Shown here one piece after another: positions 1 through 55,306 of a stretch of DNA of 64,000 nucleotides. How positions within the stretch are numbered: position 1 is the first letter of the stretch; every line of letters begins with the position of its first letter. The position numbers and the translations under genes were made by a program. The notes under the pieces are model-generated. The model saw only the letters and a program-made list of their open reading frames with translations, ran no database searches and was not told the origin of the DNA. Source of the DNA: an uncultured Candidatus Binatia bacterium. GTDB taxonomy: Bacteria; Desulfobacterota; Binatia; Bin18. Location: contig CBDDQA010000006.1 of assembly GCA_965232605.1 (NCBI GenBank), positions 159,077 through 223,076 on the forward strand, read 5' to 3'.

Positions 1-54
1 TTTATCGAGGACGCGAAGGCGGTGTCCCAAGCGATACAACAATCAACATCATGA
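1..54 (+). CDS. 3' end of an upstream gene (partial). Its stop overlaps the hsdS ATG (ATGA). Genomic context suggests a type I RM methylase subunit (hsdM), but identity is not determinable.
   Basis: Open frame from position 1 ending in TGA at 52-54, overlapping the ATG at 51. Translational-coupling arrangement typical of hsdM-hsdS. Confidence 0.3.
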   Translation, partial: FIEDAKAVSQAIQQSTS

Positions 55-2243: not shown

Positions 2244-2402
2244 AAGACTGATAGCGCCTATAAGAATACGCATTCAAGCAAGGGCAATAGAAGCATCTGA
2301 CTCTGCGAAATTCCGCGCCCACCTGCCCCGAATCCACCGTCGAAACAACATCCAGCATCGTCTATACTGGCCCGTTATCGTTTGGTTGTCGGAGGTGTAA
2401 CC

Positions 2403-2672
2403 GTGGAAATTTCCAAACCCCAGCGTATATGGACCGTAGCCGAAGCGAAGGCCCACCTGTCGGAAATTTTGCGGCTGGCCGAAGAGGAGGGGCCGCAGTA
2501 TATCGGTAAGAGAAACACTTTCGTCGTGGTGCCCAAACGACTGTGGCAAAAGCAATCGCCGCCGCGCAAGCCCTTTGGCCAGTGGCTCATTGAGAACGTA
2601 CCACGCGGTACCAATCTTGAGGTTTCGGACCGGCGCTCCAATCGCCCGATTCCCTTCATTGACATTGAGTAA
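2403..2672 (+). CDS. Orphan Phd/YefM-family antitoxin-like protein sitting between hsdS and hsdR. No cognate toxin is adjacent.
   Basis: The N-terminal motif VEISKPQRIWTVAEAKAHLSEILRLAEEEGPQYIGKRNTFVVVP resembles Phd/YefM antitoxins. A GGAGG RBS lies 6 nt upstream of the GTG at ~2403. The tracked ORF starts at the ATG at 2382. Confidence 0.5.
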   Translation: MEISKPQRIWTVAEAKAHLSEILRLAEEEGPQYIGKRNTFVVVPKRLWQKQSPPRKPFGQWLIENVPRGTNLEVSDRRSNRPIPFIDIE

Positions 2673-2765
2673 ATTGTTCAGCTATTTCCGGCCCCAGGCG
2701 GAAGATTTGGCCCGGCGCTTGTTGGAGCCACGCTGATTGAAACCCGTTGAGGACTGGCTGAAAAC

Positions 2766-5700: not shown

Positions 5701-5906
5701 TGCGCGATATCGCCCGTGAATTGGTGCAAACCGTGCGTAATAACGTCACCATTGACTGGACGCGGCGCGAGAATGTCCGCGCCAACCTGCGCCGCCTGGT
5801 TAAGCGCATTCTGCGCAAGCACGGTTATCCGCCTGACAAGCAGGAACGAGCGACCCGGACCGTACTGGAACAGGCCGAGGTGCTGTCCGCCGGCTGGGCG
5901 GTTTAA
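2766..5906 (+). CDS. hsdR: Type I restriction enzyme R subunit (HsdR), an SF2 helicase/endonuclease.
   Basis: Canonical HsdR N-terminus ([29 protein letters not shown]), Walker A motif GSGKSLT, DEAH box [11 protein letters not shown]. Length 1046 aa. Confidence 0.95.
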
Positions 5907-6127: not shown

Positions 6128-6520
6128 TCACGCGGCAAGAACGTTGATATCTCGGCACTCGATCAGGCGCTGGTCCGCCGTGACAAGGGTCAGATCGAAT
6201 GTCTTTGCAGTGGCGGCGATGAGACGGTCCGCGGGGTCGCGATGCGGAAGATTGATGGACGCGCTCCCCAGCACCACATCCATCGTGAGGGGAATTTCTG
6301 AGACCGGACTTGCGGACATGGCCTTGCGCAACCATCTCGGCCCGTCCGGTTCCAGGACAAGCCGCCCCCGCTCGGCCAGCAGCAGAGTCTCCCACAAGCT
6401 GATAGACGCAAGGCGTAGCGCCGTCCCGCGCGCGGTGAGGGTGTCACGCACTGTGATTGAGAGCCGGTCCGGGTCAAGCAGACTCCAGAGCCAAATATGC
6501 GTATCAAGAAGTAGCGACAT
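6128..6520 (-). CDS. vapC: PIN-domain toxin VapC.
   Basis: LLDTHIWLW...D...TAD PIN acidic-residue pattern. 130 aa. Start overlaps the vapB stop. Confidence 0.9.
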   Translation of the reverse strand: MSLLLDTHIWLWSLLDPDRLSITVRDTLTARGTALRLASISLWETLLLAERGRLVLEPDGPRWLRKAMSASPVSEIPLTMDVVLGSASINLPHRDPADRLIAATAKTFDLTLVTADQRLIECRDINVLAA

Positions 6521-7096: not shown

Positions 7097-9441
7097 AGGT
7101 GAAACGGGTCGAAGACCCGCGGGTGCTGTTGGGTCACAGCCAGTATGTCGATGATATCCACCTGCCCGGCGCCCTCGGGGTCGCGTTTGTCCGCAGCCCC
7201 TACCCGCATGCCCGGCTGCTCACGGTCGATGTCAGCGCCGCTCAAGCGTCTCCAGGGGTAGAGGCGGTCTTGACCGGGGCGGATGTGACCCAGGCGATCC
7301 GCCCCCTGCGCGTGGAGTATGATCCGGCCAAGGCCCCGAAACATAAACCGTGCAACTGGTCGGTGTTAGCCCAGGGCAAGGTTCGCTTCGTGGGAGAACC
7401 GGTGGCGGTCGTTGTCGCCTCGGACCGCTACACGGCAGAGGATGCCGCGGCTGGCGTGACAGTCGAGTATGAGCCCCTGGAGGTTGTGCGCGATATCGAA
7501 CAGGCCATGCAGCCGGACGCCCCGCTCATCCATGAGGAATGGGGCGACAATCTCATGCAGACGGTGGACATGCAGGCCGGCGCGATTGCCCAGGCTTTTC
7601 AGGCGGCAGATTGCATCGTGGCCGAGCGCTTTGCGACCGGTCGGCATGTGGCGCTGCCCATGGAAGCCCGTGGCTGTCTGGCCCACTATGAGCCGGCTTC
7701 AGGCTCCCTGACACTGTGGTCCTCGACCCAGGTGCCGCATCTGATGCGGGCTCACCTGGCCCGCCTGCTCGACTTTCCCGAGCACCATATTCGGGTCATC
7801 GCCCCGGATGTCGGCGGGGGGTTCGGACCCAAAGCCTACGTCTATCCCGAGGAAGTCCTGCTGACCTTTCTTGCCAAGCATATCGGCCGCCCGGTCAAGT
7901 GGATCGAAGACCGACGCGAAAACCTGTCCGCCTCGACCTTGCAGGCCAAGCAGCAAGTCGTGCAGGCGGAACTCGCCCTGACCAGGGAGGGGACTATCCT
8001 GGGGGTGAGGGGGCGTTTTATCTGCGACGTGGGGGCCTACTCGGCCTATCCGTGGGGCTCTGCCCTGGAGGCCGGCATGGCGGCTTCGGCCTTCCCAGGA
8101 GGCCCCTATAAGGTCCCGGCCTTCCGCTGCGAGGCCCTGTCGGTTGTGACTAACAAGACCACGAGTGGGGCCTATCGTGGGGTGGGTTTGCCGGTCAGCA
8201 TTCTGGTCATGGAACGCCTGCTCGACCTGGGGGCACAGAAACTGGGGCTCGACCCGGTCGAGCTGCGCCTGCGTAATATGATCCGCAAGGAGGAACATCC
8301 CTATCAGACCATCACCGGGGTTGAGATCGAAAGCGGCAGCCACCGGGAGGCTCTGCAAAAGGCCCTGGGCATGCTCGACTACCCGGCTTTCCGGGCCGAG
8401 CAGCAACAGGCGAGACAACATGGGCGCTACCTCGGCGTTGGCCTGGGCTGTTATGTCGAGAGCTCGTCCTACAGCTATCGCAGTTTTGAGCCGGTCGGCA
8501 TCACCTGGGGCGGCTATGAATCGGCTACCGTACGCATAGACGCAAACGGCAAGGTCACCGTCCTGGTCGGCACCCACTCGCACGGCCAGGGCCATGAGAC
8601 GACGTTTGCCCAGGTTGCGGCGGACGAGCTGGGTGTGCCCGTGGCTGACGTCAGGGTGATTCAGGGAGATACCACGACCGTTCCGCACGGCTGGGGAACG
8701 TGGGCCAGCCGCAGTGCCGTGCTCGGCGGCGGCGCCATTATTCAGGCGTCGAGCCAGTTGCGGGAGAAAATTCTGCGCACGGCCTCACGCCTGAGCGAAG
8801 TGCCGCAAGATGACCTTGAACTGGCCGAGGGATTAGTCCGGCGCAAGACGGATAGCCTGGTACTCATGCCGTTGCAGGACATCGCTCACCTGCTGGTTGT
8901 CCAGGCACCGGCAGGTCTACCGGAAGACGAAGAACCGGGTTTGGAGGCAACTGCGCACTACACCCCACCGCCCTGGACCCACGCCAACGCCACGGTTGTG
9001 GCGACGGTCGAGGTGGATATCGAAACCGGCTCCGTCCGGCTGCTGCGGCTGATTGTGGTCGAAGACTGCGGCACAATAATCAACCCGTTGGTGGTTGACG
9101 GACAGATCCAGGGCGGCGTGGCTCAGGGCATCGGATCGGCCCTGTACGAGCAGACGGTGTACGACGAGAACGGCCAACTGCTGACGGGGACGCTGATGGA
9201 CTATCTGGCTCCCACCGCGGTGGACGTTCCTCGGGTCGAAATCGGACATATCGAAACCCCAGCGCCGAACACGCCGCGCGGCATCAAGGGCATGGGCGAA
9301 GGCGGAGCCATTTCACCGCCGGCAGCCATAGCCAACGCCGTGGCGGACGCCCTGGCACCGTTGGGGGTACGGGTCAACGAGATTCCGCTCACCCCGGAGC
9401 GGGTTCTGGTCCTGATCGACCAGGCACGCCAGGGGGCGTGA
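7060..9441 (+). CDS. Xanthine dehydrogenase family molybdopterin-binding large subunit (CoxL/aerobic CO dehydrogenase-like). No adjacent medium or small subunits.
   Basis: N-terminus MTTVGTGKMVGAQVKRVEDPRVLLG and C-terminal GMGEGG motif. 793 aa. Confidence 0.9.
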   Translation: MTTVGTGKMVGAQVKRVEDPRVLLGHSQYVDDIHLPGALGVAFVRSPYPHARLLTVDVSAAQASPGVEAVLTGADVTQAIRPLRVEYDPAKAPKHKPCNWSVLAQGKVRFVGEPVAVVVASDRYTAEDAAAGVTVEYEPLEVVRDIEQAMQPDAPLIHEEWGDNLMQTVDMQAGAIAQAFQAADCIVAERFATGRHVALPMEARGCLAHYEPASGSLTLWSSTQVPHLMRAHLARLLDFPEHHIRVIAPDVGGGFGPKAYVYPEEVLLTFLAKHIGRPVKWIEDRRENLSASTLQAKQQVVQAELALTREGTILGVRGRFICDVGAYSAYPWGSALEAGMAASAFPGGPYKVPAFRCEALSVVTNKTTSGAYRGVGLPVSILVMERLLDLGAQKLGLDPVELRLRNMIRKEEHPYQTITGVEIESGSHREALQKALGMLDYPAFRAEQQQARQHGRYLGVGLGCYVESSSYSYRSFEPVGITWGGYESATVRIDANGKVTVLVGTHSHGQGHETTFAQVAADELGVPVADVRVIQGDTTTVPHGWGTWASRSAVLGGGAIIQASSQLREKILRTASRLSEVPQDDLELAEGLVRRKTDSLVLMPLQDIAHLLVVQAPAGLPEDEEPGLEATAHYTPPPWTHANATVVATVEVDIETGSVRLLRLIVVEDCGTIINPLVVDGQIQGGVAQGIGSALYEQTVYDENGQLLTGTLMDYLAPTAVDVPRVEIGHIETPAPNTPRGIKGMGEGGAISPPAAIANAVADALAPLGVRVNEIPLTPERVLVLIDQARQGA

Positions 9442-10250: not shown

Positions 10251-11444
10251 ATGCAAACCGCGACGGAGAACAGACGCTGGTCAAAGGAATACCCCGAGTT
10301 GGGGACGGGACCCGTGCCGGCGGAATCGTGCATTTCCCCGGAGTATTTTGAGCTTGAACGCGAACGGGTCTTTCGCCGTACCTGGCTCAACGTGGGCCGC
10401 GTCGATGATATTCCCAACGCGGGCGACTTTTTCGTGCGCGAGCTGGCGGTGTGTAAAACCTCGATTCTGGTCATCCGAGGCAAGGACGGCGTCATCCGCG
10501 GCTTTCACAATGTCTGCTCGCACCGTAGCAACAAGCTGGTCTGGGAAGAGCGTGGGACCTGCCGTGGGGCCTTAGCCTGCCATTTTCATAGTTGGGGGTA
10601 TAACGCCCAGGGGCAACTCACCGGCGTCCCGGACGAAGAGAACTTCCACGATATCAATAAGAGCGAGCTGGGACTCACCCCGGTGACTACCGACATCTGG
10701 GAAGGGTTTATCTTTGTCCATCTGGGTTCACAGCCCCAAGAGACGCTCACCGACTATCTGGGTGGCGTGGCTGACCAGATGAAAGGGGCCGCCTTTCATA
10801 AACGAAAACACACCCACACGTATAAAGTTGAAGAGCAGGCCAACTGGAAGGTTGCCCTGGACGCCCAGAACGAGGCGTATCACCTGCCCTTCCAGCATCG
10901 CTATTCCTTTCCCGGGATGTTCGTCCTCAAAGACAACCGCTATCTGCGTCTCTCGGGTGTGAAGCTGTATAATCATCACGCGGTCTGGTCGACCACCTAT
11001 AATTCGGAAAGTACGCCGACGCCGACTGGGGCGCTCATGAACCAGCTCAATACGGCCACCACCAACAGCCGCCTGCCCATGCTGGGGGATTTCGACTTTT
11101 TTGTGATCTTTCCCAATTTTGTCATTCTCCAGTTTCGGGGCATCGAAGACGACTATTACATGACCTATAATTTCTGGCCGCTGGCGGTGGATCGCTGCAT
11201 CTGGGAGATCAAATTTCATTTCCCGCCCGCCGAAACGGCCGGCCAGCGACTCAGCCAGGAATACCTCAAACACCGCATCTGCGATGTGCTCCAAGAGGAC
11301 GCCGTGGCGCATGAGACCCTGCAAACCGGTCTGAGCTCGCGGGCGAAAACACATCTCATCCTCCAGGATGATGAGATCCAGATTCGGCATTTTCACAAAG
11401 TGTTGGAAGACTATATGGGGTTCTTCAACGGACGGGGGCACTGA
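10251..11444 (+). CDS. Rieske [2Fe-2S] non-heme-iron oxygenase alpha subunit (paralog 1).
   Basis: CSHRSNKL...CHFHSWGY Rieske motif. Catalytic domain with E..H..YH/D ligand pattern. Confidence 0.9.
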   Translation: MQTATENRRWSKEYPELGTGPVPAESCISPEYFELERERVFRRTWLNVGRVDDIPNAGDFFVRELAVCKTSILVIRGKDGVIRGFHNVCSHRSNKLVWEERGTCRGALACHFHSWGYNAQGQLTGVPDEENFHDINKSELGLTPVTTDIWEGFIFVHLGSQPQETLTDYLGGVADQMKGAAFHKRKHTHTYKVEEQANWKVALDAQNEAYHLPFQHRYSFPGMFVLKDNRYLRLSGVKLYNHHAVWSTTYNSESTPTPTGALMNQLNTATTNSRLPMLGDFDFFVIFPNFVILQFRGIEDDYYMTYNFWPLAVDRCIWEIKFHFPPAETAGQRLSQEYLKHRICDVLQEDAVAHETLQTGLSSRAKTHLILQDDEIQIRHFHKVLEDYMGFFNGRGH

Positions 11445-12604: not shown

Positions 12605-13435
12605 ATGTCCAGCCAGGCGACGAGTCGCTATGCCACCATTAACGGTCTCAGGCTCCACTATGTGGAGTGGGGCGATGCGCAGGCAACGCCTCTGGTCTGT
12701 CTGCACGGCTTACGGGCCTACGGCCACTGGTTCGATGAGTTGGCCGCGGTCGTGAGCGACCGGTATCGGGTCCTGGCCCTGGACCAGCGCGGACGGGGTG
12801 AGACCGACTGGGCCGCGGACGGCGACTACACGCGGGAAGCCTACGTCTCGGATGTGGAGGCCTTTGTCGAGACGCTCCAACTCGACCGGTTCATCCTGGT
12901 CGGCCACTCGATGGGCGGTCTCAACGCCATCCACTATGCCGCGCGTCACCCCGAGCGGGTGCTGGCGCTGGGCATCCTGGACATCGGCCCGGAGATTGAC
13001 CCCGCCGGCATGCAGCGCATACGCGCCGAACTGGGGGAGACGCCGGCGGGGTTTGACTCCTGGCCGGCGGCCAAGGCGTTTCTGCAGATGCGCCATCCCA
13101 AAGCCTCGGAGGAAAACCGCCGGACGCGCCTCACCTGGATGCTCAAGGAGGACGCGGACGGCAGGATTGCGTGGCGGATAGACCAGGCCATTTTCGACCC
13201 GAACCTGAAGCCTGACGATCCACAGCAGACCTGGGACCTGCTGAGTCAGATTCGCTGCCCGACCCTGATCCTGCGCGGTGGGGAGTCGGACGTGCTGAGC
13301 GTTGACACCTGTCAAAAAATGCTCACCCGCATCCCGGACGGTCAATGGGTCGAAATTCCCGGCGCGGGTCATATGGTGCTTGAGGATAATCCCGAGGCGT
13401 GCAACGCGGCGCTGCGCGACTTCTTCAAACGTTAG
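12605..13435 (+). CDS. Alpha/beta-fold hydrolase.
   Basis: GHSMGG nucleophile elbow. GGAGGG RBS before the ATG at 12605. The tracked ORF extension overlaps the SDR gene and is rejected. Confidence 0.85.
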   Translation: MSSQATSRYATINGLRLHYVEWGDAQATPLVCLHGLRAYGHWFDELAAVVSDRYRVLALDQRGRGETDWAADGDYTREAYVSDVEAFVETLQLDRFILVGHSMGGLNAIHYAARHPERVLALGILDIGPEIDPAGMQRIRAELGETPAGFDSWPAAKAFLQMRHPKASEENRRTRLTWMLKEDADGRIAWRIDQAIFDPNLKPDDPQQTWDLLSQIRCPTLILRGGESDVLSVDTCQKMLTRIPDGQWVEIPGAGHMVLEDNPEACNAALRDFFKR

Positions 13436-13443
13436 GAGAATCT

Positions 13444-14589
13444 ATGGCTGCACCGCTCGCCCTTCAGGACTTCTCAAAAACGCGCCAGGACCTGCTGCAC
13501 GCCAGGCATTTGCCGGGCGAGTTTTACACCTCAGCCGAGATTTTCCAAAAAGAGATCGAACAGATCTTCATGAAAGACTGGCTGTGCGTCGGCCGGGTCG
13601 AGCAATACGCCAAGCCGGGCGACTACCGCGCCCTGCGGATCGCCGGCGAGCCGGTCCTGATCTGTAAGGATAAGAGCGGCCGGCTGCACGCCTTTGCCAA
13701 CGTGTGTCAGCATCGCGGGGTCGAAGTTGTCCGGGGTGAAGGGAATACCCAGGAGTTCAGCTGTCCGTATCACGCCTGGACCTACGGGCTGAACGGCGAG
13801 TTGACCGGTGCGCCCTATAGTGCACCGGTCACCACCTTCGACTGGGAGTCCTGCCGTTTGCCCACGGTTCAACTCGATACCTGGGCGGGCTATATCTTCA
13901 TTAACTTCGATCCCCAGGCGGAGAGCCTGGCCTCCTACCTCGCCGTTGACCGCGTGCAGGAAGCCGCCGGGTTTTTACACGCCGAAGACACCCGCATCGC
14001 CGACGAATACACCTTTGAGCTGGACTGCAACTGGAAATTTATCCCGGAAAACCTGATGGACATTTACCACGTCGGCGTGATTCACGGCTCGTCTTTCGGC
14101 AAGGTCTTTCCCGTAGACAAATTTCCGTTCTCCCTGACCCCGCACGGCTATCACTCGGAGTACGAGAGCCTGACCATGGCCCCGGACGGCGCCTGGCTGT
14201 TTGGCAAGGCCATGCCCTGGCTGGAGCAGAAGTCGCAGTCCTTCGCCTTTACCATCTTCATCCGGCCCAGTTTCAATATGTTTGCCCGGCCCGACATGCT
14301 CCAGCCGTGGTTCTGTCATCCCATCGCGCCGGACAAAACGCGCATTACCATCCTGACCCAATACCCGGCCGAGTGGTTTGAGCAGCCGGCCTTCGAGGCC
14401 AAGAACGCGGTGGTCAAGGATTTCATCCGGCTGGTCGCCGGCGAAGATAAGGAGATGATGCTCTCGCTCCAGAACGGCGTCGGCTCCCGCAACTTCCGCC
14501 CCGGGCCGACCATGGGCCTCGAAAAGGCCATCCACCATTTGCTGAACTCCTATCTCGATCGCATGTTCGGGGCGGAGATGGCGAGGTGA
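13444..14589 (+). CDS. Rieske oxygenase alpha subunit from a different subfamily. No small partner gene.
   Basis: CQHRG...CPYHAW Rieske motif. AGGAG RBS before the ATG at 13444. Confidence 0.9.
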   Translation: MAAPLALQDFSKTRQDLLHARHLPGEFYTSAEIFQKEIEQIFMKDWLCVGRVEQYAKPGDYRALRIAGEPVLICKDKSGRLHAFANVCQHRGVEVVRGEGNTQEFSCPYHAWTYGLNGELTGAPYSAPVTTFDWESCRLPTVQLDTWAGYIFINFDPQAESLASYLAVDRVQEAAGFLHAEDTRIADEYTFELDCNWKFIPENLMDIYHVGVIHGSSFGKVFPVDKFPFSLTPHGYHSEYESLTMAPDGAWLFGKAMPWLEQKSQSFAFTIFIRPSFNMFARPDMLQPWFCHPIAPDKTRITILTQYPAEWFEQPAFEAKNAVVKDFIRLVAGEDKEMMLSLQNGVGSRNFRPGPTMGLEKAIHHLLNSYLDRMFGAEMAR

Positions 14590-16327: not shown

Positions 16328-18265
16328 ATGGTCTGGGATGATAAGCTAGAAGGAACCCATCGAGAAATTGCGGCTGAAGCGAGTTCACCCATCCAAGTGC
16401 TCGCTGGTCCAGGGACGGGCAAGACATTTGCTATGATGCGCCGTGTAGCCCGATTGCTCGAAGATGGTATTAACCCGGAACGTATCTTGGCAGTAACATT
16501 CACCCGTACCGCAGCCCGAGATCTCAAAGAACAGCTTTCCAACCTTGGTATCGAAAGCGCAGAAGATGTCCAGGCGGTGACACTCCATGCTCTCTGTTAC
16601 TCAATACTCGCAAAAGAAGAGTTTTTCGATGCTACGGGTCGTAAAGCCCGTCCCCTCCTCTCGTTTGAACGAGACCAACTCGTCAATGATCTATCTGGAA
16701 ATTTTCAAGGAAAGCAAAAAACGAAAGCCTTACTGGAGGCTTACGAAGCCGCGTGGGCACGCTACCAGTTCGAGGAGGCCGGATCACCCACGGAGTCTAC
16801 GGATCAAGCGTTCCAAAGCGTCTTACTCGACTGGTTGGGTTTCCATCGCTGTATGTTGATCGGAGAACTTGTCCCACTCACGCTCTCATATGCTCAACAG
16901 AATCCAGCGTTGAGTCTGTTACCAGAATTTGATCACGTGCTTGTTGACGAGTACCAAGATCTCAATAAGGCCGACCAAACGTTAGTTGAGACGCTTGGCC
17001 AATCGGGATCATTTGTTGTGATTGGTGACGATAATCAATCGATCTACAGCTTTCGGCATGCGAATCCAGAAGGAATACGGACGTTCCAGGACACCCATGC
17101 TGGAACGACAGCTTTCACGATTGACGAATGTCGGCGATGTCCTCCCAACATCGTTGAGATGAGCAATTCGCTTATCAGCTATGACCAGAGACGGTCTAGG
17201 CCCGTCCCTCTCACACCCGATCCTAGCCGCCCTCTTGCGAGTATCTATATTGTCCAACATCAAACTGCGGACGAAGAAGTTGGCAGTACCGCAGACTATG
17301 TAGACCATTATTTGAACGTCCATCCAGATATCAACCCTGGACAAGTCTTGGTCCTTGCTACGCGACGATTCATAGGAAACCGTATTCGCGATGCGCTAAT
17401 CTCTCGTCGAAGAAATGCCCTGAGCTACTTTTCTGAGGACGCGGTGGAGAAACCTGCCGCCGCGCAAGGATTTTGTCTGTTGACCTTACTCGTTTTTCCT
17501 GAGGACCGGGCCGCTCTGCGTGCATGGTTTGGACTCGGCCAAACGGAGAATGGATTCTCGAAGCAGTACGCACGAGTACGTGCACATGCACAAAATGAAG
17601 GTATAGAAATTCGTGAAGTCCTTGAGCGACTAAGAGCGGGAGCCATAACAATCGCCCATACAGCAGGGATTCTTGCCCGTTACGCAGAACTGAAGGGGCG
17701 CCTGAACGCACTTTCGTCTCTAAAAGGATTGGAACTCGTGAGTGTGCTCTGGCCTTCTAACGAAGAAGATTCCCGACATATACGTGTTCTAGCGGAGAAC
17801 TTAGCCATTGAAGACGGAGAACCGTCAGATCTGTTAGAGGCGCTCCGTCATGAAGTCACGCAGCCTGATTTACCAGACTCCACCGGTGATGTGATACGGG
17901 TCATGAGTCTCCATAAGTCGAAAGGGCTCACCGCGTCTTTGGTTATCGTCACCGGTTGCATGTCTGGCACCCTGCCGACCATTACGACGGGTGCCTCACA
18001 AGTAGAGAGGGATCGTCAATTTGATGAGCAGAGACGATTATTTTATGTAGCGATCACCAGGAGTACCAACACGTTGGTGATAAGCTCAGCGATAACTCTG
18101 CCAAATAGTGAGGCGCTTGCTAATGGCATCGACATTCTTCGAGCTAGACGTGTCAATGGCATCTGGACAGCTTGGACTTCAGCAAGCCCCTTCATTGCAC
18201 AGCTAGGGTCATCAGCTCCCAGCCCTCTAACGACAAGCTTATGGCGAGCCCAAGCTGGCTTCTAG
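16328..18265 (+). CDS. Stand-alone UvrD/Rep-like SF1 helicase (645 aa) in a lower-GC islet.
   Basis: Motifs GPGTGKT (I), TFTRTAA (Ia), LVDEYQD (II), VIGDDNQSIY (III), VMSLHKSKGL (V), YVAITRS (VI). Local GC is about 50% versus about 63% in the flanks. Confidence 0.9.
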   Translation: MVWDDKLEGTHREIAAEASSPIQVLAGPGTGKTFAMMRRVARLLEDGINPERILAVTFTRTAARDLKEQLSNLGIESAEDVQAVTLHALCYSILAKEEFFDATGRKARPLLSFERDQLVNDLSGNFQGKQKTKALLEAYEAAWARYQFEEAGSPTESTDQAFQSVLLDWLGFHRCMLIGELVPLTLSYAQQNPALSLLPEFDHVLVDEYQDLNKADQTLVETLGQSGSFVVIGDDNQSIYSFRHANPEGIRTFQDTHAGTTAFTIDECRRCPPNIVEMSNSLISYDQRRSRPVPLTPDPSRPLASIYIVQHQTADEEVGSTADYVDHYLNVHPDINPGQVLVLATRRFIGNRIRDALISRRRNALSYFSEDAVEKPAAAQGFCLLTLLVFPEDRAALRAWFGLGQTENGFSKQYARVRAHAQNEGIEIREVLERLRAGAITIAHTAGILARYAELKGRLNALSSLKGLELVSVLWPSNEEDSRHIRVLAENLAIEDGEPSDLLEALRHEVTQPDLPDSTGDVIRVMSLHKSKGLTASLVIVTGCMSGTLPTITTGASQVERDRQFDEQRRLFYVAITRSTNTLVISSAITLPNSEALANGIDILRARRVNGIWTAWTSASPFIAQLGSSAPSPLTTSLWRAQAGF

Positions 18266-26183: not shown

Positions 26184-27377
26184 TTATTTGAGCGGCGGGA
26201 CTATCTCGCTCGGGTCGAGCCCGAGTTCCAGGCTGCCGACGCTGGACAGACAATAATCGCTGGGCGGAAACTGGACCGGGCCAACGGCGCCGTCCCGGAA
26301 CAGTCGCTCAAGCGGGACGGTCTTGAAGAGCGTATGGGCACCGCCCAGCGTGAGCGCGGTCCGCGTAATCCGCGCCCCGGCCTCGCCGACCAGATACTTG
26401 GCGCGGAACAGCGCCGCCACGGTTTCCTGGGTCGGTCCCTGGGTGTCGCTGAGCCAGGCCGAATGATAGGTCAGCAGCCGGGCGGCCTCCAGATCCACGC
26501 TCATGTCAGCCACCCGCCGGCGCACGTCCGGATGGTAGGCCATCGGCTGGGTATAGCCCCGCGGGACCCTTTCCTGCACCAGCTCCCGCACGGTGTTGTA
26601 GGCCGCCGCGGCCACACCCAGATACACCGCCGTATAGGAGGCCCACAGCCAGTTCGCCCCGCTACGGATGAACGGCAGGATGTCGTCGGTCCGGTAGAGT
26701 ACGGCGTCCTGAGACACGAAACAGTCTTCGAGAATCAGGGAGTCACTGCGCGTCGCCCGCATACCGAGCGTATCCCAGACCTCGTCGACGCGCCGGCCCG
26801 GCGCCCGGCGGGGAATCAGCAGCAAGAGAGCGGCCCCCGGCGTATCGATCTCCTCGGGGTGCGCCAGCACCGCACAGAAGTCAGCCGCCTCCAACATGGA
26901 GGCAAACGCTTTTCTGCCCGTGATCTGATACCCACCCGCAACCTGCCGGGCGCGCGTGGCCGGTTGGTAGGTGGCCAGCAGGCCGGACGTCCGCGGCTCG
27001 GAGAAGTTCCCGGCAATCAGCCTTTGCTCTTTGACGACCAGGTCGGCCAGACGCCGCTTGGTGTCCGGCGGAACGATGGGACTCTCGAACAGGGGGCCGA
27101 TGATCGAGAGGTGCATATTGAACGAGAGGGCCGTGGCCGGACAGCCCTGGGCGAGTTCCTCGGCCGCCAGGGAGTAGTCGAGCAGCCCGACGCCCTCCCC
27201 CCCCATCTCGGTAGGAACATTGAGGCTGTAGAATCCCTCCCGGCGTAGGGCCGCATAGTTTTCCAGCGGATGGCTGGCTTCCTGATCATGCGCGGCGGCG
27301 CGGGTGGCGAAGTCTGCTGCCAGCCGCCGACTCCGCTGCTGGAGGCGTGTCCCTGCTTCGCTGACCTGAAAATTCAT
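26184..27377 (-). CDS. Acyl-CoA dehydrogenase family protein.
   Basis: Three-domain ACAD pattern. Confidence 0.8.
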   Translation of the reverse strand: MNFQVSEAGTRLQQRSRRLAADFATRAAAHDQEASHPLENYAALRREGFYSLNVPTEMGGEGVGLLDYSLAAEELAQGCPATALSFNMHLSIIGPLFESPIVPPDTKRRLADLVVKEQRLIAGNFSEPRTSGLLATYQPATRARQVAGGYQITGRKAFASMLEAADFCAVLAHPEEIDTPGAALLLLIPRRAPGRRVDEVWDTLGMRATRSDSLILEDCFVSQDAVLYRTDDILPFIRSGANWLWASYTAVYLGVAAAAYNTVRELVQERVPRGYTQPMAYHPDVRRRVADMSVDLEAARLLTYHSAWLSDTQGPTQETVAALFRAKYLVGEAGARITRTALTLGGAHTLFKTVPLERLFRDGAVGPVQFPPSDYCLSSVGSLELGLDPSEIVPPLK

Positions 27378-27501
27378 GACCGCCCTCCTTTGTTCAGCTC
27401 CGAGGTCAGGCTGTCCGGGATCGGGGAAGAAACCTACATTATACGGCTTTATCTCCCCGCAGCAGCCTGCCTGTCAACCCAACGGCCTCCGAGCAAGAGA
27501 A

Positions 27502-28836
27502 ATGATTCAGCCGGCGCGGCGTCCATTGTATTCCCGGCCGAGATGGAGCAGGATAACATCATATTCACAGACAACACATCGACGAGGGATACCATGCAAG
27601 ACAGCGTACACACACACCAATGGCAAACGCTGGACGCTCGACCACCCGGAGCTGGGAACCGGACCGCTGCCCGTCACGCCCTATCTTTCCGCAGCGTATT
27701 TTGAGCAGGAGCGCGAGAAAATTTTTACCCGCACCTGGTTGTGTACGGGTAAGAAAATCGAGGAAATCCCGCAGCCGGGCGATTATCTGGTGCTGGATAT
27801 TGCGGTCGGCAAAACCTCGGTCCTGCTCGTCCGGGGTAAAGACGGCCGGGTGCGCGGGTTTCACAATGTGTGCAAACATCGTGGTAATCGACTGGCCTGG
27901 AACGATCGCGGCGCCTGTGGCTCCGGGTTGACGTGTCGCTTCCACGGCTGGACCTATGCCGCGGACGGCCGCCTGGTCGGGGTGCCGGAAGAAGATATGT
28001 TCTTTGACTTTGACAAGCGGGACTACGGCCTGAGTCCGGTCGCCACGGATGTCTGGGCAGGCTTTATCTTTATCAACCTCGATCCCGACCCGCCGGAAAC
28101 GCTGCACCAGTATCTGGGCGAAGTGGTTGACCTGCTGCGCGGCTATGCGTTTGACCGCCTGCCGCTGAGCTGGTCGTATACGGCCGAGCAGAAGTGCAAC
28201 TGGCGGATTCTGCGCGACTCGCAGCTCGAGTTCTATCACGGCAAGGCGCTGCACCAGCAGTTCGCCGGCAAGGTGATGATGAATAAGCGGCAGCCGTCCT
28301 GCCACGTCCTCGACGTCAAACTCTTTCGCCGCCACAGCATGATGTCGTTTTACGGCGACCGCCGGAATACCCAACGCACGCCCATGGAGCTGTTGATGGC
28401 CCAATTCGGGGCCAGCTTCAAAACCTTTCCCAGCGCGCGGGATATGGACCGCTGGCCCCTCGGGGTCAATCCCACCCGTAGCCGGCAGTGGTTCTTTGAT
28501 ATCTATTATATCTTTCCCAATTTTCATCTGGTGATTCTGAGCCCCTTTCTGTTTGTCGCCCACACCATGTTGCCGGAGACGGTCAATCGCTCGACCTGGA
28601 ACGCGCGGGGCTATTTCCCGCAGCCCACGACTGCCGCAGAGACAGTGACGCGCGAATATAATAAATGCCTGGCGCGGGACGTGTGGCTGGAAGATGGCAG
28701 TACCCTGGAAAACACCCAGCGCGGGATCGAGTCGGGCGTCCTCAGCCAGTATCCGGTCCAGGACCAGGAACTACTGATCCGCCACGCCCATCAGGTGGCG
28801 GAAGAGTTGCTCGGCAGCAACGGGCAAACGGGATGA
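27502..28836 (+). CDS. Rieske oxygenase alpha subunit (paralog 2).
   Basis: CKHRGNRL...CRFHGWTY. Start placed at the first in-frame ATG downstream of the untranslatable-looking extension. The true start is uncertain. Confidence 0.8.
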   Translation: MIQPARRPLYSRPRWSRITSYSQTTHRRGIPCKTAYTHTNGKRWTLDHPELGTGPLPVTPYLSAAYFEQEREKIFTRTWLCTGKKIEEIPQPGDYLVLDIAVGKTSVLLVRGKDGRVRGFHNVCKHRGNRLAWNDRGACGSGLTCRFHGWTYAADGRLVGVPEEDMFFDFDKRDYGLSPVATDVWAGFIFINLDPDPPETLHQYLGEVVDLLRGYAFDRLPLSWSYTAEQKCNWRILRDSQLEFYHGKALHQQFAGKVMMNKRQPSCHVLDVKLFRRHSMMSFYGDRRNTQRTPMELLMAQFGASFKTFPSARDMDRWPLGVNPTRSRQWFFDIYYIFPNFHLVILSPFLFVAHTMLPETVNRSTWNARGYFPQPTTAAETVTREYNKCLARDVWLEDGSTLENTQRGIESGVLSQYPVQDQELLIRHAHQVAEELLGSNGQTG

Positions 28837-34302: not shown

Positions 34303-34668
34303 ATCTCCCTCCTTCCGACGTTATCGCCTATCAATTCGGGGGTACGATAGCAAACGATACTGGAGAAGTCATAAGGGACGTTACAGTCTTAGCGGGGCAA
34401 TGGCAACGATGAGGGGAAAAGTGGGTCACGTGAAAGTGAAAGGTCAGGGATTTGTAATGCGCATCTCTACTGAAGTCACTGAACGGCTCAACCGCTTCTG
34501 GAGTACGTCCCGTTTCGTAAAATGGCTCATTTTCTGACGAATCGTTGCCGGCTCCCATAAAGGACGTCCGTTTTGAAAAGGCGCCCGCCTTTACAGCATT
34601 GACAGCCTGAGGCCGGCTCACGTAGTTAGGGCGCGGGGAAAAAATAGTTCGTTGTGAGGGAGGGCTCT

Positions 34669-35958
34669 ATGGCTGAATCTGTTGAAGGCGGACGAGTGCC
34701 AGAGATAGGCAACCCGCACGGGATGGACTGGACTCCGCTCCGAGATGTTGGGAAGGCGGAGATTCCCGTCTCTCGATACGTCTCAGACGACTACTACGCG
34801 AGAGAGAAGGAACGTATCTGGCGACGTTCGTGGCTGTTGATCGGACGCGAGTCGGACGTTTCGAAAGCCGGAGATTTTTTCACCTTCTACCTCCACGTTC
34901 TGAGCACGCTGGTCATCGTGATTCGCGGAAAGGACGGGGAGCTGCGAGCGTTTCACAACGTCTGTCAGCACCGGGGGGCCCAGATCCAACACGAAGCCTG
35001 TGGCAGTTGCAGGGCGCTTACCTGTGCATTTCACGGATGGGTGTATGATCTGGACGGCTCGCTCCTTAACGTGCCTCAGGCCGAGCAGTTTGAAGAACTC
35101 GACTACGAGGAGCGGCAACTGAAGAGGATCCATCTTGATACCTGGGGCGGCTTCGTCTTCATCAACCTGGACCCGGCCGACCAGCCCGAACACACGCTCG
35201 CAGAATGGCTCGGTCCGATGCCGGGGCCGCTTGGCGAGTATTTCGCGAAGGAGAACTGGATCTGGCGGGTCGGTTGGAAAGGTATCTTCGAGGCCAATTG
35301 GAAAATCATGGTCGACGTTCAGCTGGAGGGCTACCACGTCAATGCGCTCCACGCCAAGACCATCGGAGGGGTCTTCGGCCCAGCGCAGCTTCAGAACCTC
35401 GCCTTTCCAGATACGCCGGGAATGCCGACCAAGCTCGAGTTCATGCGCCCGGACATTTCGAAAGACAAGAGCTTCCGGCGTCCAATTCAAACGCCCGTGA
35501 TGAAAGCGGCCGTGGAGTACGGGGCCACATCTCCCTTTACTGACAAAGACGCCTCCTCGGGCGGTATTCCCCTCCGCGCGAACCACTACCCCGGAGCAAT
35601 CAACAGGCTGGACGACCCTCTTTGGATCTTCGACGACTACCTGATCTTTCCGAACGTGGTGATGATGGCGCAGACCGACCACATCTGGTTGCAACGAGTG
35701 TGGCCGATTTCCCAGCATCGCACAGCCTGGGAGTTCGAGTGGTATTTCATCGATTGGCCCAAAAGCTTCGGCGAGTGGTTTGCCTGGGAGCAGGCCTACT
35801 GCCATTTTCGAGATGTGACAACCCAAGACATGGTGAACGTCGAAGGAATGCAAAAGGCCTACCGCGCCGGCTCCATCAGTACAATGGTCGTCTCAGATAT
35901 CGAGGGCGGCGTACGGTGCTTTCAGGACAAAGTCACCCAGATCGTTGGCGCAGAGTGA
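34669..35958 (+). CDS. Rieske oxygenase alpha subunit (paralog 3).
   Basis: CQHRGAQI...CAFHGWVY. GAGGGAGGG RBS before the ATG at 34669. Confidence 0.85.
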   Translation: MAESVEGGRVPEIGNPHGMDWTPLRDVGKAEIPVSRYVSDDYYAREKERIWRRSWLLIGRESDVSKAGDFFTFYLHVLSTLVIVIRGKDGELRAFHNVCQHRGAQIQHEACGSCRALTCAFHGWVYDLDGSLLNVPQAEQFEELDYEERQLKRIHLDTWGGFVFINLDPADQPEHTLAEWLGPMPGPLGEYFAKENWIWRVGWKGIFEANWKIMVDVQLEGYHVNALHAKTIGGVFGPAQLQNLAFPDTPGMPTKLEFMRPDISKDKSFRRPIQTPVMKAAVEYGATSPFTDKDASSGGIPLRANHYPGAINRLDDPLWIFDDYLIFPNVVMMAQTDHIWLQRVWPISQHRTAWEFEWYFIDWPKSFGEWFAWEQAYCHFRDVTTQDMVNVEGMQKAYRAGSISTMVVSDIEGGVRCFQDKVTQIVGAE

Positions 35959-49926: not shown

Positions 49927-50514
49927 TCATTCTGAGAGGCGAAGGTAAAAAATGACAACAGGCATCTTCGCGAAGGGAAATTCTCTCAATACCGTCACCA
50001 CCTCGCCCAGATACTGCTGCAAGGTTTCCTGCGGGTGGGGATGCAGATGGATAAAGATAAACCCGCCACAGATGTCTGTGGTAACCCGAGTCAGAGCATA
50101 TTCCTTTTTTTCGAAATCAAAGAACATCTCCTCTTCCGGCACCCCGACCAGTTGGCCGTCTGGGGCATACGTCCAGCCGTGGAATTTGCACGTCAATTTC
50201 TGGCACGAACCCGACCCATGCCAAGCAAGCTTATTCCCTCGATGTTTACACACATTATGGAAAGCCCGCACCACGCCGTCCTGTCCGCGAACCACAAGAA
50301 TCGAGGTATTGCCCACGGCAAGGTCCTGAACAAAGTAGTCTCCGGCCTGCGAAATTTCTTCTACTCTTCCGACGTTGAGCCATACCCGCCGAAAGATCCG
50401 TTCACGTTCCAACTCAAAGTATTCCGGCGAAATATAGGATTCAATCGACGCTGGGCCGGTTCCCAGCTCAGGATATTGTGTGGTCCAGCGTGGCTTGTTG
50501 GTGGCAGGCTCCAT
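49927..50514 (-). pseudogene. Truncated Rieske oxygenase alpha subunit. The Rieske domain is intact but the catalytic domain is missing, and the ORF ends where the GatC-like/amidase cassette begins.
   Basis: The first 180 aa are near-identical to paralogs 1 and 2 (CKHRGNKL...CKFHGWTY). The sequence diverges and stops after FPFAKMP. Confidence 0.65.
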
Positions 50515-52544: not shown

Positions 52545-53192
52545 TTATGGATTGATAATGACTTCGTGGGCCGGCCCTTTGAATAATATCTCTAGCCGGT
52601 TCAGTACGTCTCGCCCAAGAATCCGTTCTTGACCAGTGAAGTCTGCTTGCAGCCGACACGGATAGTTTCTACCATCAAAGAATGCCCACGCTCGAAAAAC
52701 TAATGTCGCAGTAGCTGTTTCTCCAACACCTCCCATCAAACCCGGGACACCCTCTTGTGGATCGAAGGCTAACTGCTCGCAGTCTGCCCACGGAAGCGCA
52801 CTGGCATCCGCACCCGTATCTGGAATCACCTTCTCCAGTATAGTCCCCGGAGTTTCAGCCTGCTTTCGAAATTCTACAGTCATCACCGGCAGCGCTTCGC
52901 CAGGATACCCGTCGTCATACGGAAATATAGCTCGGCGCATACGACAGGGTTCATTTTCATGTCCGACGCATGTGACAAAAGGGTGGAGTTCTGACTCCTG
53001 GGCCGCATGAAAGACTTCCACCGGACTGCTCCCAGATACAATCACCTGACCGTTTGCGAAGCCAACCCACTGGTCGTGATATTGCGAGAGTAACTGTTCA
53101 CGCTGCGCCCAGTACTCGGCTTCATTTTTACACCAGTCAGGGTGAATCTTCTGAGCCACTTCCGGCGGCAGGCCTTCAATCAGGCTTTTCAT
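52545..53192 (-). CDS. Protein with a C-terminal retropepsin-like (clan AA, DTGA) aspartic protease domain.
   Basis: VIPDTGADASALP...ILGRDVL pattern. Local GC is lower than the flanks. Confidence 0.5.
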   Translation of the reverse strand: MKSLIEGLPPEVAQKIHPDWCKNEAEYWAQREQLLSQYHDQWVGFANGQVIVSGSSPVEVFHAAQESELHPFVTCVGHENEPCRMRRAIFPYDDGYPGEALPVMTVEFRKQAETPGTILEKVIPDTGADASALPWADCEQLAFDPQEGVPGLMGGVGETATATLVFRAWAFFDGRNYPCRLQADFTGQERILGRDVLNRLEILFKGPAHEVIINP

Positions 53193-53391
53193 ACAACACC
53201 TCAAAGGAACTCGTCCTATTTTTTCCAAGGATTATACACCGATACCGACTCCGGTAGCGAGCCGGGGAAGCAGGAATCGACTCGGTCTCAGGTCGGGAGA
53301 CCCATTTTCGCTTGACAGTAGCCGTTCCGGTGCACTAGGACGGAGACACGGGAGAGGCGCGGAGAGTACGCACTATTTCTTTCAGTCAACA

Positions 53392-54009
53392 TTGAGCGGG
53401 AGGAGGGACACTATGGCACGGCTCAGTCTCGTGGACCACAAGCAGATGAGTCCGCAGTATGCGCAACTGGTGGAACGGGTAAAAAGCGCTGACGGTTATG
53501 TCAATTTTCTGAGCATGATGGCCCACCGCCAGGAGGTCGTTGAGCCCATGTGGCGGGCCTATGTCGATATGTTCGAGGAGGGCGTTGTCGAGCCACCCCT
53601 CAAGGAGTTGGTCCGCATCAAAATTGCCTATCTGAACGGGTGTTTATTTTGACAGGGCTTTCGCTACGCATCGGTGATGCGGAAAGGACTGACCGAAGAA
53701 AAAATCGCCCAGCTTGAGGATTATGCAAACAGCCCGGCCTTTACTCCGCGCGAAAAGAGCGCCCTCCGGTTTGCCGAGAAGCTGGCCATTGACTATGACT
53801 CGATTGATAACGACGAGTTCTTTATCGGGCTCCAACAGCATTTTACCGACGCCGAGATCGTCGAGCTCGGTATCGTGATCGGCTATGACATCGCTTTTGG
53901 TCGGCTGCTGCGCGTGTTTGACGCCGACCCGAAGGTGTGTGAGGTTCCGGAGCATCGTGAGGTTGGCATAGACGTTGCCGAATCTCCGGCTCTGTCCACA
54001 GCAAAATAA
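53392..54009 (+). CDS. AhpD/carboxymuconolactone decarboxylase-family protein with an in-frame TGA at 53650-53652. It is a candidate selenoprotein with a CxxU motif (NGCLF-U-QGF).
   Basis: The two tracked ORFs (53392-53652 and 53674-54009) are in the same frame, separated by a single TGA plus 7 codons. The TGA sits at the position of the second Cys of the family's NGCxYC redox motif. A SECIS-like hairpin follows immediately. Confidence 0.55.
53653..53691 (+). promoter_or_regulatory. SECIS-like stem-loop directly 3' of the in-frame UGA: CAGGGCUUUC-GCUA-CGCAUC-GGU-GAUGCG-GAAAG-GACUG.
   Basis: Lower stem CUUUC/GAAAG, 4-nt bulge, 6-bp upper stem, GGU apical loop with G and U. Position is 1-40 nt after the UGA, as in bacterial SECIS elements. 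Confidence 0.45.
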
Positions 54010-54076
54010 TGAATGCCACGGGTGGGTCAGAAACGACCCACCCTGTTCTGTTGGTTAGCCGAGCGGAACGGTTTCC

Positions 54077-55306
54077 TCAGATCCGTTCGATAATCGTGGC
54101 AATGCCCATGCCGCCACCGATACACATGGTGACCAGCCCGGTGGTTTTATCCCGACGTTCGAGTTCGTCGAGAACAGTGCCCATGAGCATGCTGCCGGTC
54201 GCGCCAAGCGGATGACCCAGGGCAATGGCCCCACCGTTGACGTTGACCGTGTCCGGGTCCATGTCACAGTCGCGCATGGTTTTCAGGGGGACGACCGCGA
54301 ATGCCTCGTTGATTTCAATCAGGTCGATATCCTTGATCGTCATGCCGGCTTTTTTGAGCACCTTTCTGGTCGCCGGAACCGGCGCGGTCAACATGATGAT
54401 GGGCTCATCTCCCGCGGTTGCGGTGGCGACAATCCGAGCGCGCGGCTTCATACCGTGGCTGCGGGCATACTCCGGAGAGGCGAGCAGCAGGGCTCCCGCG
54501 CCGTCAACAATGCCCGACGAATTGCCGGCGTGATGCACGTGGTTGATCTCGTTCACGTCCGTGTAGCGGGACAGCGCCTTTTCGTCGAAACTCAGCGTGT
54601 CGCCCTTTTGCACATACTTCCCCAGTTCCGCAAAGGACGGCGGCAGTTGACCAAGCCCCGCAAGCGTCGTGTTTGGCCGGGGATATTCGTCGCGCTCTAA
54701 GATCACCGTACCGTCAGCACCGCACACCGGAATCAGGCTCTTTTTCAGGCGATCCTCTGCATGAGCCCTTGTGTAGCGCTGCTGGCTCGACAGCGCGAAG
54801 GTGTCACAATCCTCGCGGCTGAAGCCCTCGCGGGTGGCAATCAGATCGCCCGAGATGCCTTGCTGGACAAGCGGGTGGAGTTGGCGCAGATGCCGATTAT
54901 GGCCGTCAATCCCGCCGCGGTCCGCATTCATCGGCACGCGGGACATGGACTCCACTCCACCGGCGACCACCAGGTCCTGCTCACCGGACTTGATACCCAT
55001 GGCCGCAAAATTGACCGCCTGCTGTCCCGAGCCGCAGAAACGGTTAATCGTCACCCCGGTCGAATCGTTCGGCCACTCGGCTGCCAGCACGGACATCCGG
55101 GCAATACACATGGCCTGCTCGCCGTACGCGGTCACACAGCCGACCACCACGTCGTCCACATCACGCGGGTCCAGGTCGTTTCTTTCTTTTGTGGCGTTCA
55201 GAACTTGTGCCATGAGTTCCTGGGGATGGATCCCCGCCAGCGCCCCATCCTGCTTTCCCCGCCCACGCGGGGTTCGAACGGCATCAATAATCCAAGCTTC
55301 ACCCAT
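54077..55306 (-). CDS. Acetyl-CoA C-acyltransferase (thiolase).
   Basis: Thiolase N- and C-terminal signatures (active-site Cys regions). Confidence 0.9.

Follow-up and report, generated by a model that had tools for sequence, protein, structure and literature searches.

The 64,000-nt stretch of DNA analysed here (hereafter the window), which belongs to contig CBDDQA010000006.1 of an uncultured Candidatus Binatia bacterium, carries in its distal part a gene for an AhpD-like protein of the CMD superfamily. The frame of this gene is crossed by a TGA codon at the position of a catalytic Cys, and the TGA is directly followed by a hairpin that resembles a bacterial selenocysteine insertion sequence (SECIS) element (Table 1). 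The initial annotation had described the locus as a pair of same-frame open reading frames (ORFs) split by a single TGA at 53650-53652, and we could confirm this description: that TGA is the only in-frame stop between the ATG at 53413 and the TAA that closes the gene.

Concerning the start of the gene, we depart from the initial annotation, which had placed it at TTG 53392 for a product of ~205 residues. The AGGAGGG motif that precedes ATG 53413 is kept in every readable upstream region of the orthologs but one (locus L012), and an ATG occupies the equivalent site in all orthologs except two, L004, which has a GTG there, and L012, which differs upstream. Because both the AGGAGGG and the ATG are conserved at this point, we take ATG 53413 as the start, which gives a product of 198 residues and about 22 kDa. 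Comparison of the upstream regions of the orthologs revealed no comparable Shine-Dalgarno-like motif ahead of the internal GTG/ATG (53674/53677). With a conserved start signal at the first ATG only, the sequence from 53413 to 54009 almost certainly represents one gene and not two. The gene appears to be monocistronic, given that its neighbours on both sides lie on the opposite strand and that its TAA is followed by a terminator-like hairpin. Of the 37 long ORFs of the window, 16 end in TGA, more than in either other stop, so this codon is not globally reassigned.

Table 1. Coordinates of the AhpD-like gene, its signals and RNA elements, and the Rieske oxygenase genes of the window
Feature	Position	Strand	Evidence
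AhpD-like coding sequence, 198 codons, putative Sec (selenocysteine) at codon 80, stop TAA 54007-54009	53413..54009	+	Read-through translation, Pfam match, two-sided purifying selection
Shine-Dalgarno AGGAGGG, 5 nt 5' of ATG 53413	53401..53407	+	Conserved in ortholog upstream regions
Redox motif Cys77-Leu78-Phe79-Sec80 (TGT TTA TTT TGA), CxxU	53641..53652	+	Alignment to Cys homologs and PA0269
UGA codon 80, predicted to be read as selenocysteine	53650..53652	+	Invariant in 27 distinct ortholog sequences
Candidate bacterial SECIS hairpin	53653..53691	+	Fold of -14.9 kcal/mol, bSECIS constraints, covariation
SECIS lower stem	53653-53655/53689-53691 and 53658-53662/53682-53686	+	Fold
SECIS upper stem, 6 bp	53667-53672/53676-53681	+	Fold
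SECIS apical loop GGU, 20 nt after the UGA	53673-53675	+	Fold
Terminator-like hairpin GGGTGGGTC-AGAAAC-GACCCACCC, then T-rich tail, 11 nt 3' of the stop codon	54020..54053	+	Terminator scan
Rieske ring-hydroxylating oxygenase alpha-subunit paralogues, five in 64 kb	10251-11444, 13399-14589, 27376-28836, 34654-35958, 49927-50514		

The membership in the AhpD/CMD family proposed in the initial annotation is well supported. With a Cys placed at the stop, residues 53-122 match the Pfam CMD domain PF02627 at 45.9 bits (threshold 23), and the closest solved structure by sequence is that of PA0269 of Pseudomonas aeruginosa (PDB 2O4D/2IJC), which aligns with residues 58-162 at E = 5e-13. PA0269 is an AhpD-like protein with weak thiol-dependent H2O2 reduction, and its proton relay is made of Glu36, Cys48, Tyr50, Cys51 and His55; enzymes of the gamma-carboxymuconolactone decarboxylase (PcaC) type, which lack the CxxC motif and the relay residues, have instead a three-helix motif of their own (PMC3141380). 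The window protein does not resemble the PcaC type. It has a CxxC-type centre, here CxxU with U for selenocysteine (Sec), together with a relay Glu, which places it on the AhpD-like side of the superfamily.

The TGA had also been proposed to stand at the second Cys of an NGCxYC-type motif, and the alignments agree. NGCLF-U-QGFR of the window protein aligns with NGCLFCQDWR in full-length Cys homologs of ~40% identity (from Nocardia and others), while the corresponding motif of PA0269 is NGCAYC. The five relay residues of PA0269 correspond in the sequence alignment to Glu65, Cys77, Phe79, Sec80 and Arg84, with Glu65 placed 11 residues ahead of Cys77 and matching Glu36. The two proteins therefore have the Glu and the first Cys of the centre in common, and they differ in that PA0269 has Cys rather than Sec at the second position, in the replacement of its Tyr50 and His55 by Phe79 and Arg84, and in that the window protein is longer by ~55 residues at its N-terminus and has a variable tail of 25 residues. 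Arg84 is also conserved among the Cys homologs of the same clade.

Among the NCBIfam models, the best match is NF053654 (GroundWater_YciW, YciW-related (seleno)protein), a model that is itself defined to include selenoproteins. The alignment runs end to end, from residues 1-167 of the protein to positions 1-170 of the 179 of the profile, but its score of 82.4 bits does not reach the equivalog cutoff of 310, and the model would not name the window gene automatically. TIGR01926 (peroxidase-related enzyme), under which AhpD-like selenoproteins are listed (PMC13188914), gives 38.9 bits and likewise remains under its cutoff of 81.8. As neither cutoff is reached, public annotation splits the gene. 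Eight distant relatives that also have the TGA score only 42-93 bits against NF053654, and by such profile scores the clade to which the window protein belongs is a sister clade of the NF053654 family, lying outside that family.

We gathered orthologs from the contigs of the closest database proteins and by scanning a collection of species-representative genomes (GTDB species representatives). The closest database proteins are 75-94% identical, and each, at ~110 residues, corresponds to the C-terminal half alone, so the same split is present elsewhere. Full-length matches came from 19 genomes and from 13 loci in metagenomes, and almost all of these records bear the title Candidatus Binatia (Binatota). 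Among the carriers are complete Binatia chromosomes such as OZ242288.1, OY282457.1, OX638322.1 and OZ243979.1. Codon 80 is TGA in all 19 Candidatus Binatia species genomes (19/19) and in eight further distinct metagenome copies, and these frames contain no other stop and no frameshift. The ratio of nonsynonymous to synonymous substitution (dN/dS, Nei-Gojobori) lies between 0.03 and 0.12 on both sides of the TGA (codons 1-79 and 81-175), at synonymous divergences (dS) of up to ~1 or more.

These data bear directly on the possibility, raised in the initial annotation, that the gene is a recent pseudogene in which a Cys codon (TGC/TGT) mutated to TGA and which is now decaying. Public gene calls, which give two ORFs of 79 and 110 aa, would fit such a decay, as would the lack of Sec machinery in the window and in related loci (see below). 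However, the TGA is identical in the 19 species genomes and in the metagenome copies despite more than one synonymous substitution per site, no other lesion is found, and the dN/dS values are equally low on either side of the TGA. Nor are the orthologs assembly duplicates of one genome, as they share 76-97% DNA identity with the window. Because both halves are constrained and a single stop is unchanged across 19 species, the pseudogene reading is refuted, and we regard its probability as negligible. True decay in this family looks quite unlike the window gene. A decayed copy is present in another metagenome (L116; ENA ERZ23495044 scaffold_263348, ~620-1130), where GGG TGT has become AGG CGT, with loss of the Cys, and TGA has become TGG, and where the frame is further broken by an additional in-frame TAG and by frameshifts; the hairpin can still be made out in its sequence. 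This copy provides a natural contrast to the intact genes.

Two of the ortholog records bear other names, L029 (CAZBUD010000044.1) being titled 'uncultured Enterobacteriaceae bacterium' and L016 (OZ219926.1) 'Thermodesulfobacteriota bacterium', with protein identities of 88% and 96%, respectively. These look like mislabelled or mis-binned metagenome-assembled genomes, since all other ortholog records are titled Binatia.

The hairpin begins directly after the UGA and has the form CAG..CUUUC....CGCAUC-GGU-GAUGCG-GAAAG..CUG. In the published model of bacterial SECIS elements (bSECIS), the apical loop has 3-9 nt, with a G within its first two positions, usually G followed by G or U, the upper stem has 4-16 bp, the distance from the UGA to the loop is 16-37 nt, and the minimum free energy is at most -7.5 kcal/mol (PMC13188914). 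The window hairpin lies within all of these limits, with a GGU loop, an upper stem of 6 bp, a distance of 20 nt and a fold of -14.9 kcal/mol. Taken as a single sequence its fold has modest significance (z = -2.1, with 6 of 200 shuffles folding equally well), and it is the comparison of related sequences, given below, that puts it well outside what chance would produce. A SECIS covariance model gives 53.3 bits at the hairpin and finds no other credible site in the window; the next best match, of 14.7 bits at 7861-7897 (-), lies antisense to a molybdenum hydroxylase gene and was judged to be due to chance.

Over 13 distinct Binatia variants the hairpin is 97.6% paired and shows one compensatory change, from C-G to U-A. 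This concerns a pair within 53665-53682, which is preserved because the synonymous choice at Tyr85 (TAC or TAT) tracks, without exception, the residue at position 90 (Arg, CGN, or Gln, CAR, respectively). The exchange of Arg and Gln at residue 90 was apparently driven by RNA pairing, so that in this place the protein would have been shaped by the SECIS stem. Moreover, the silent third positions of Ala86, Ser87, Val88 and Leu93, all within the hairpin, are invariant in the 27 distinct sequences. The part of the element conserved throughout the family comprises the upper stem and a GG[U/C] triloop (53667-53681), whereas the lower stem beside the UGA is conserved only in close Binatia orthologs.

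We then looked at more distant relatives. A search with the C-terminal 118 residues as query gave 691 relatives, many of them 90-120 residues long and beginning just past the Sec position, which suggests that many further split genes may exist among them. A metagenome scan with an alignment of such C-terminal sequences gave 80 loci from soils, freshwater and oceans, with identities of 34-57%. The codon aligned with U80 is TGA in 66 of the 80 and TGC in ~11 (12 counted, less one spurious pattern match). The TGA forms have widely varying residues past the stop (KKARFPSAME, MSVRYAGARQ, QRSRTAQAVQ, KGARFALAARQ and others), and nearly all of these unlike sequences nevertheless form a stem of 8 bp, closed by a GG[C/U] triloop at a distance of exactly 20 nt from the UGA.

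In a gapless alignment of 61 distinct sequences, compensatory changes are found in seven of the eight stem pairs (136 cells). The stem is 91.6% paired, and shifting the partners by 1-3 columns lowers this to 31-50%; in the same controls the covariation score drops from 0.746 to 0.14 or less. The Cys forms lack the hairpin: in the same register they form on average 3.45 of the eight pairs, against 7.04 in the TGA forms, and a GG loop is present in 2 of 11 Cys forms against 50 of 56 TGA forms. Since the stem pairs covary and the Cys forms are without the hairpin, the latter can be regarded as a selected RNA structure coupled to the UGA, and it behaves in these alignments as expected of a SECIS. 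The initial annotation had noted a SECIS-like hairpin just after the UGA, and its identification is strengthened both by the published constraints and by this family-wide covariation.

The same comparisons speak to a second possibility, namely that the TGA is a true terminator and that the locus produces a 79-residue N-terminal peptide and a separate C-terminal protein, started at GTG 53674 or ATG 53677, which might associate with each other. The GTG-ATG at 53674-53679 is indeed conserved in all orthologs and is taken as a start by gene callers. However, it falls within the loop and stem of the SECIS, and its conservation is explained by its location inside the RNA hairpin. The internal start also lacks a Shine-Dalgarno motif, in contrast to the first ATG with its conserved AGGAGGG; the break would fall exactly on the catalytic Cys position and destroy the CxxC centre; and the Cys homologs run unbroken across the point of the TGA. 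Finally, the distant TGA forms differ after the stop and often have no nearby start codon, and still keep the hairpin. We therefore give the production of two proteins only a slim chance.

A downstream hairpin can in principle also stimulate ordinary read-through. The UGA might accordingly be read without selenium, by a near-cognate Trp or Cys tRNA or by a tRNA(Sec) charged with Cys, with the hairpin acting as a general stimulator, and the fact that the E. coli SelA, SelB and SelD queries are unmatched in the window would agree with such a scenario. Against this, the hairpin carries a mark specific to bSECIS elements, namely a small apical loop that contains GG or GU and keeps a constant distance from the UGA, and it occurs only with a UGA where homologs have Cys; UGA serves as an efficient ordinary stop elsewhere in the window; and a UGA with a SECIS at the Cys position is the accepted signature of a Sec gene in the AhpD-like family (PMC1088965). 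Read-through without selenium thus appears to us very unlikely.

Considering the integrity of the gene, the correspondence of UGA and Cys, the family assignment and a conserved, covarying SECIS coupled to the UGA, we find it very probable that 53413-54009 encodes one 198-residue AhpD-like (presumably YciW/COG2128-type) selenoprotein of Candidatus Binatia, in which the UGA at codon 80 specifies Sec. Several observations weigh against this conclusion. When the window and 0.7 Mb of related loci were searched with E. coli SelA, SelB and SelD (tblastn), no match was obtained, and no tRNA-Sec was found in either. We could find no mention of selenium use by Binatota or Binatia in the literature searched. 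The covariation seen within Binatia alone concerns one base pair and probably reflects one or two events, and the NCBIfam models for selenoproteins and for AhpD give the protein scores under their curated cutoffs. A scan of 53300-54100 against Rfam, with E-values up to 10, gave no match, which is uninformative, as Rfam matched no bacterial SECIS here.

Concerning the Sec machinery, its absence from the window had already been remarked in the initial annotation and is borne out, ARAGORN having detected no tRNA gene of any kind in the window. Its absence from the related loci is unsurprising because all of them represent the same syntenic region; the genomes that carry the gene are ~4.5-5.2 Mb. 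A search of a large protein database with E. coli SelA as query is uninformative on Binatia, the best 120 of 8000 candidates being all enterobacterial. Neither a scan for same-frame ORFs split by TGA, scored for their coding potential, nor the SECIS covariance model revealed another selenoprotein gene in the window or the Binatia loci. The candidates that the former brought up were rejected: at 28834 (+) a Rieske oxygenase gene ends and a separate gene starts from the next ATG, those at 7701 (-) and similar sites are antisense frames of real genes, and the STAS/GPP34 candidates are simply adjacent genes.

From these features we infer Sec insertion itself, a SelB mechanism in the Binatia host and the general nature of the substrate or partner. 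SelB, loaded with Sec-tRNA(Sec), would bind to the hairpin just past the UGA and bring the tRNA to this codon, where it would compete with release factor 2. In the resulting protein the Cys77-x-x-Sec80 centre would lie at the turn of the two-helix hairpin conserved in AhpD-like proteins, with Glu65 in the position of the proton-relay Glu. A useful comparison is the AhpD of Mycobacterium tuberculosis (PDB 1GU9), which re-reduces the peroxiredoxin AhpC and has in common with the window protein a CxxC-type centre, a two-helix hairpin and a Glu-based relay, although sequence similarity is very low and the motif lies elsewhere in the chain. By analogy, its chemistry is likely to be the general chemistry of the window protein as well. 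In this AhpD the second Cys of the motif is reportedly the attacking nucleophile; because Sec takes that second position, the enzyme would be expected to cycle between a selenol/thiol and a selenenyl-sulfide form and in doing so to reduce a peroxide or an oxidised partner, for example a peroxiredoxin. Among the neighbourhood genes of the window and of related loci, none that adjoins the gene is an ahpC or a gene of a lipoamide system.

AhpD-like selenoproteins are well documented, as the initial annotation had noted. CxxU proteins of this family (COG2128/YciW type) were described in 2005 in the Sargasso Sea study, with 27 sequences (PMC1088965), and in the selenoproteome of the Global Ocean Sampling (GOS) study of 2008 the AhpD-like family ranked fourth in abundance, with 299 Sec forms and 902 Cys homologs (PMC2398784). 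They count among the selenoprotein families found most abundantly in the sea (PMC1088965, PMC2398784), and two reviews (2022; 2026, PMC13188914) place them alongside the related CMD-like and AhpD-related families. With the AhpD-like family of Zhang and Gladyshev ('AhpD-like 1' in the GOS study) the window protein has in common the AhpD/CMD fold family, Sec as the second residue of CxxU, a bSECIS with a G in a small apical loop after the UGA, abundance in metagenomes and many Cys homologs. It differs in scoring under the cutoff of TIGR01926 and in its host, as the phylum Binatota is not mentioned in the selenoprotein literature searched. Judged on its sequence, then, the CxxU gene has all the defining features of the known AhpD-like selenoproteins and would work as they do.

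The window is rich in oxygenase and hydrolase genes. Beside none of the five Rieske alpha-subunit genes could a beta-subunit or reductase gene be recognised. There are in addition three luciferase-like monooxygenases, an HpaB-type hydroxylase and an FMO/Baeyer-Villiger-type monooxygenase, as well as a molybdenum hydroxylase, amidases, amidohydrolases, CoA-transferases, an acyl-CoA dehydrogenase and a thiolase, and the oxygenase repertoire is unusually dense. The initial annotation had placed the AhpD-like gene in a catabolic island. The catabolic character is clear from the Rieske genes, monooxygenases, amidases, CoA-transferases and thiolase, but the neighbourhood of the gene is syntenic across Binatia species and the region is therefore not a recently acquired island. 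In distant relatives the neighbours change, with a Cu/Zn superoxide dismutase gene in L007 and a luciferase-like monooxygenase gene in L009, so the AhpD-like gene is a stand-alone gene without a fixed operon. It is plausible that its product clears peroxides released by uncoupled oxygenases.

Some further features of the window deserve mention. The Rieske gene at 49927-50514, on the minus strand, encodes only the [2Fe-2S] domain (195 aa), whereas its syntenic orthologs have 405-406 aa and include Ring_hydroxyl_A. The window also lacks two small ORFs (112 and 67 aa) that are found between the Rieske gene and the amidase gene in L001 and L005, and a deletion of ~1 kb appears, from this comparison, to have truncated the oxygenase. 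Between the methyltransferase gene and the selenoprotein gene lies an ORF of 227 aa without a Pfam match (52545-53228, -), whose D-T-G-A motif (IPDTGADAS) is reminiscent of retropepsin-like aspartic proteases; syntenic loci have at this position an ORF of 101 aa or nothing. A UvrD/REP-type helicase gene (16328-18265, +) has a third-position G+C of 0.47, against 0.7-0.8 in its neighbours, which suggests a foreign origin. The window opens with a cluster of type I restriction-modification genes (51-5906, +), which encodes an HsdR subunit of 1046 aa and a 730-aa protein in which an HsdS specificity domain is fused to a DUF559 endonuclease-like domain. It is followed by a small ORF (6128-6520, -) whose N-terminus is suggestive of a PIN-domain toxin.

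CxxU AhpD-like selenoproteins having been known since 2005 (PMC1088965), the gene is an unannotated addition to a well-known and abundant environmental selenoprotein family, and leaves the current understanding of that family unchanged. Its significance concerns in part how such genes are recorded. Every public copy that we found is represented by two short hypothetical ORFs, and the curated NCBI selenoprotein models miss the gene; the split annotation and the unreached models together mean that Binatia genomes, and many soil and marine metagenomes, are missing what would be a real redox enzyme. The clade has a very regular SECIS, whose GG[C/U] triloop lies exactly 20 nt past the UGA and which could be used as a covariance model for re-annotation.

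For the biology of the organisms, an AhpD-like gene with Sec would imply that Binatia need selenium, a need that goes unmentioned in the literature searched. Taken further, and here we can only be tentative, the gene may be the first sign of Sec use in the candidate phylum Binatota. It may also belong to a Sec-dominant clade of YciW-like AhpD proteins (~85% UGA among the metagenomic relatives sampled) that falls under the reach of every curated selenoprotein model, hence its annotation as two fragments. With an Arg in place of the relay His, the members of this clade might act as stand-alone selenol peroxide or disulfide reductases that guard catabolic genomes unusually rich in oxygenases.

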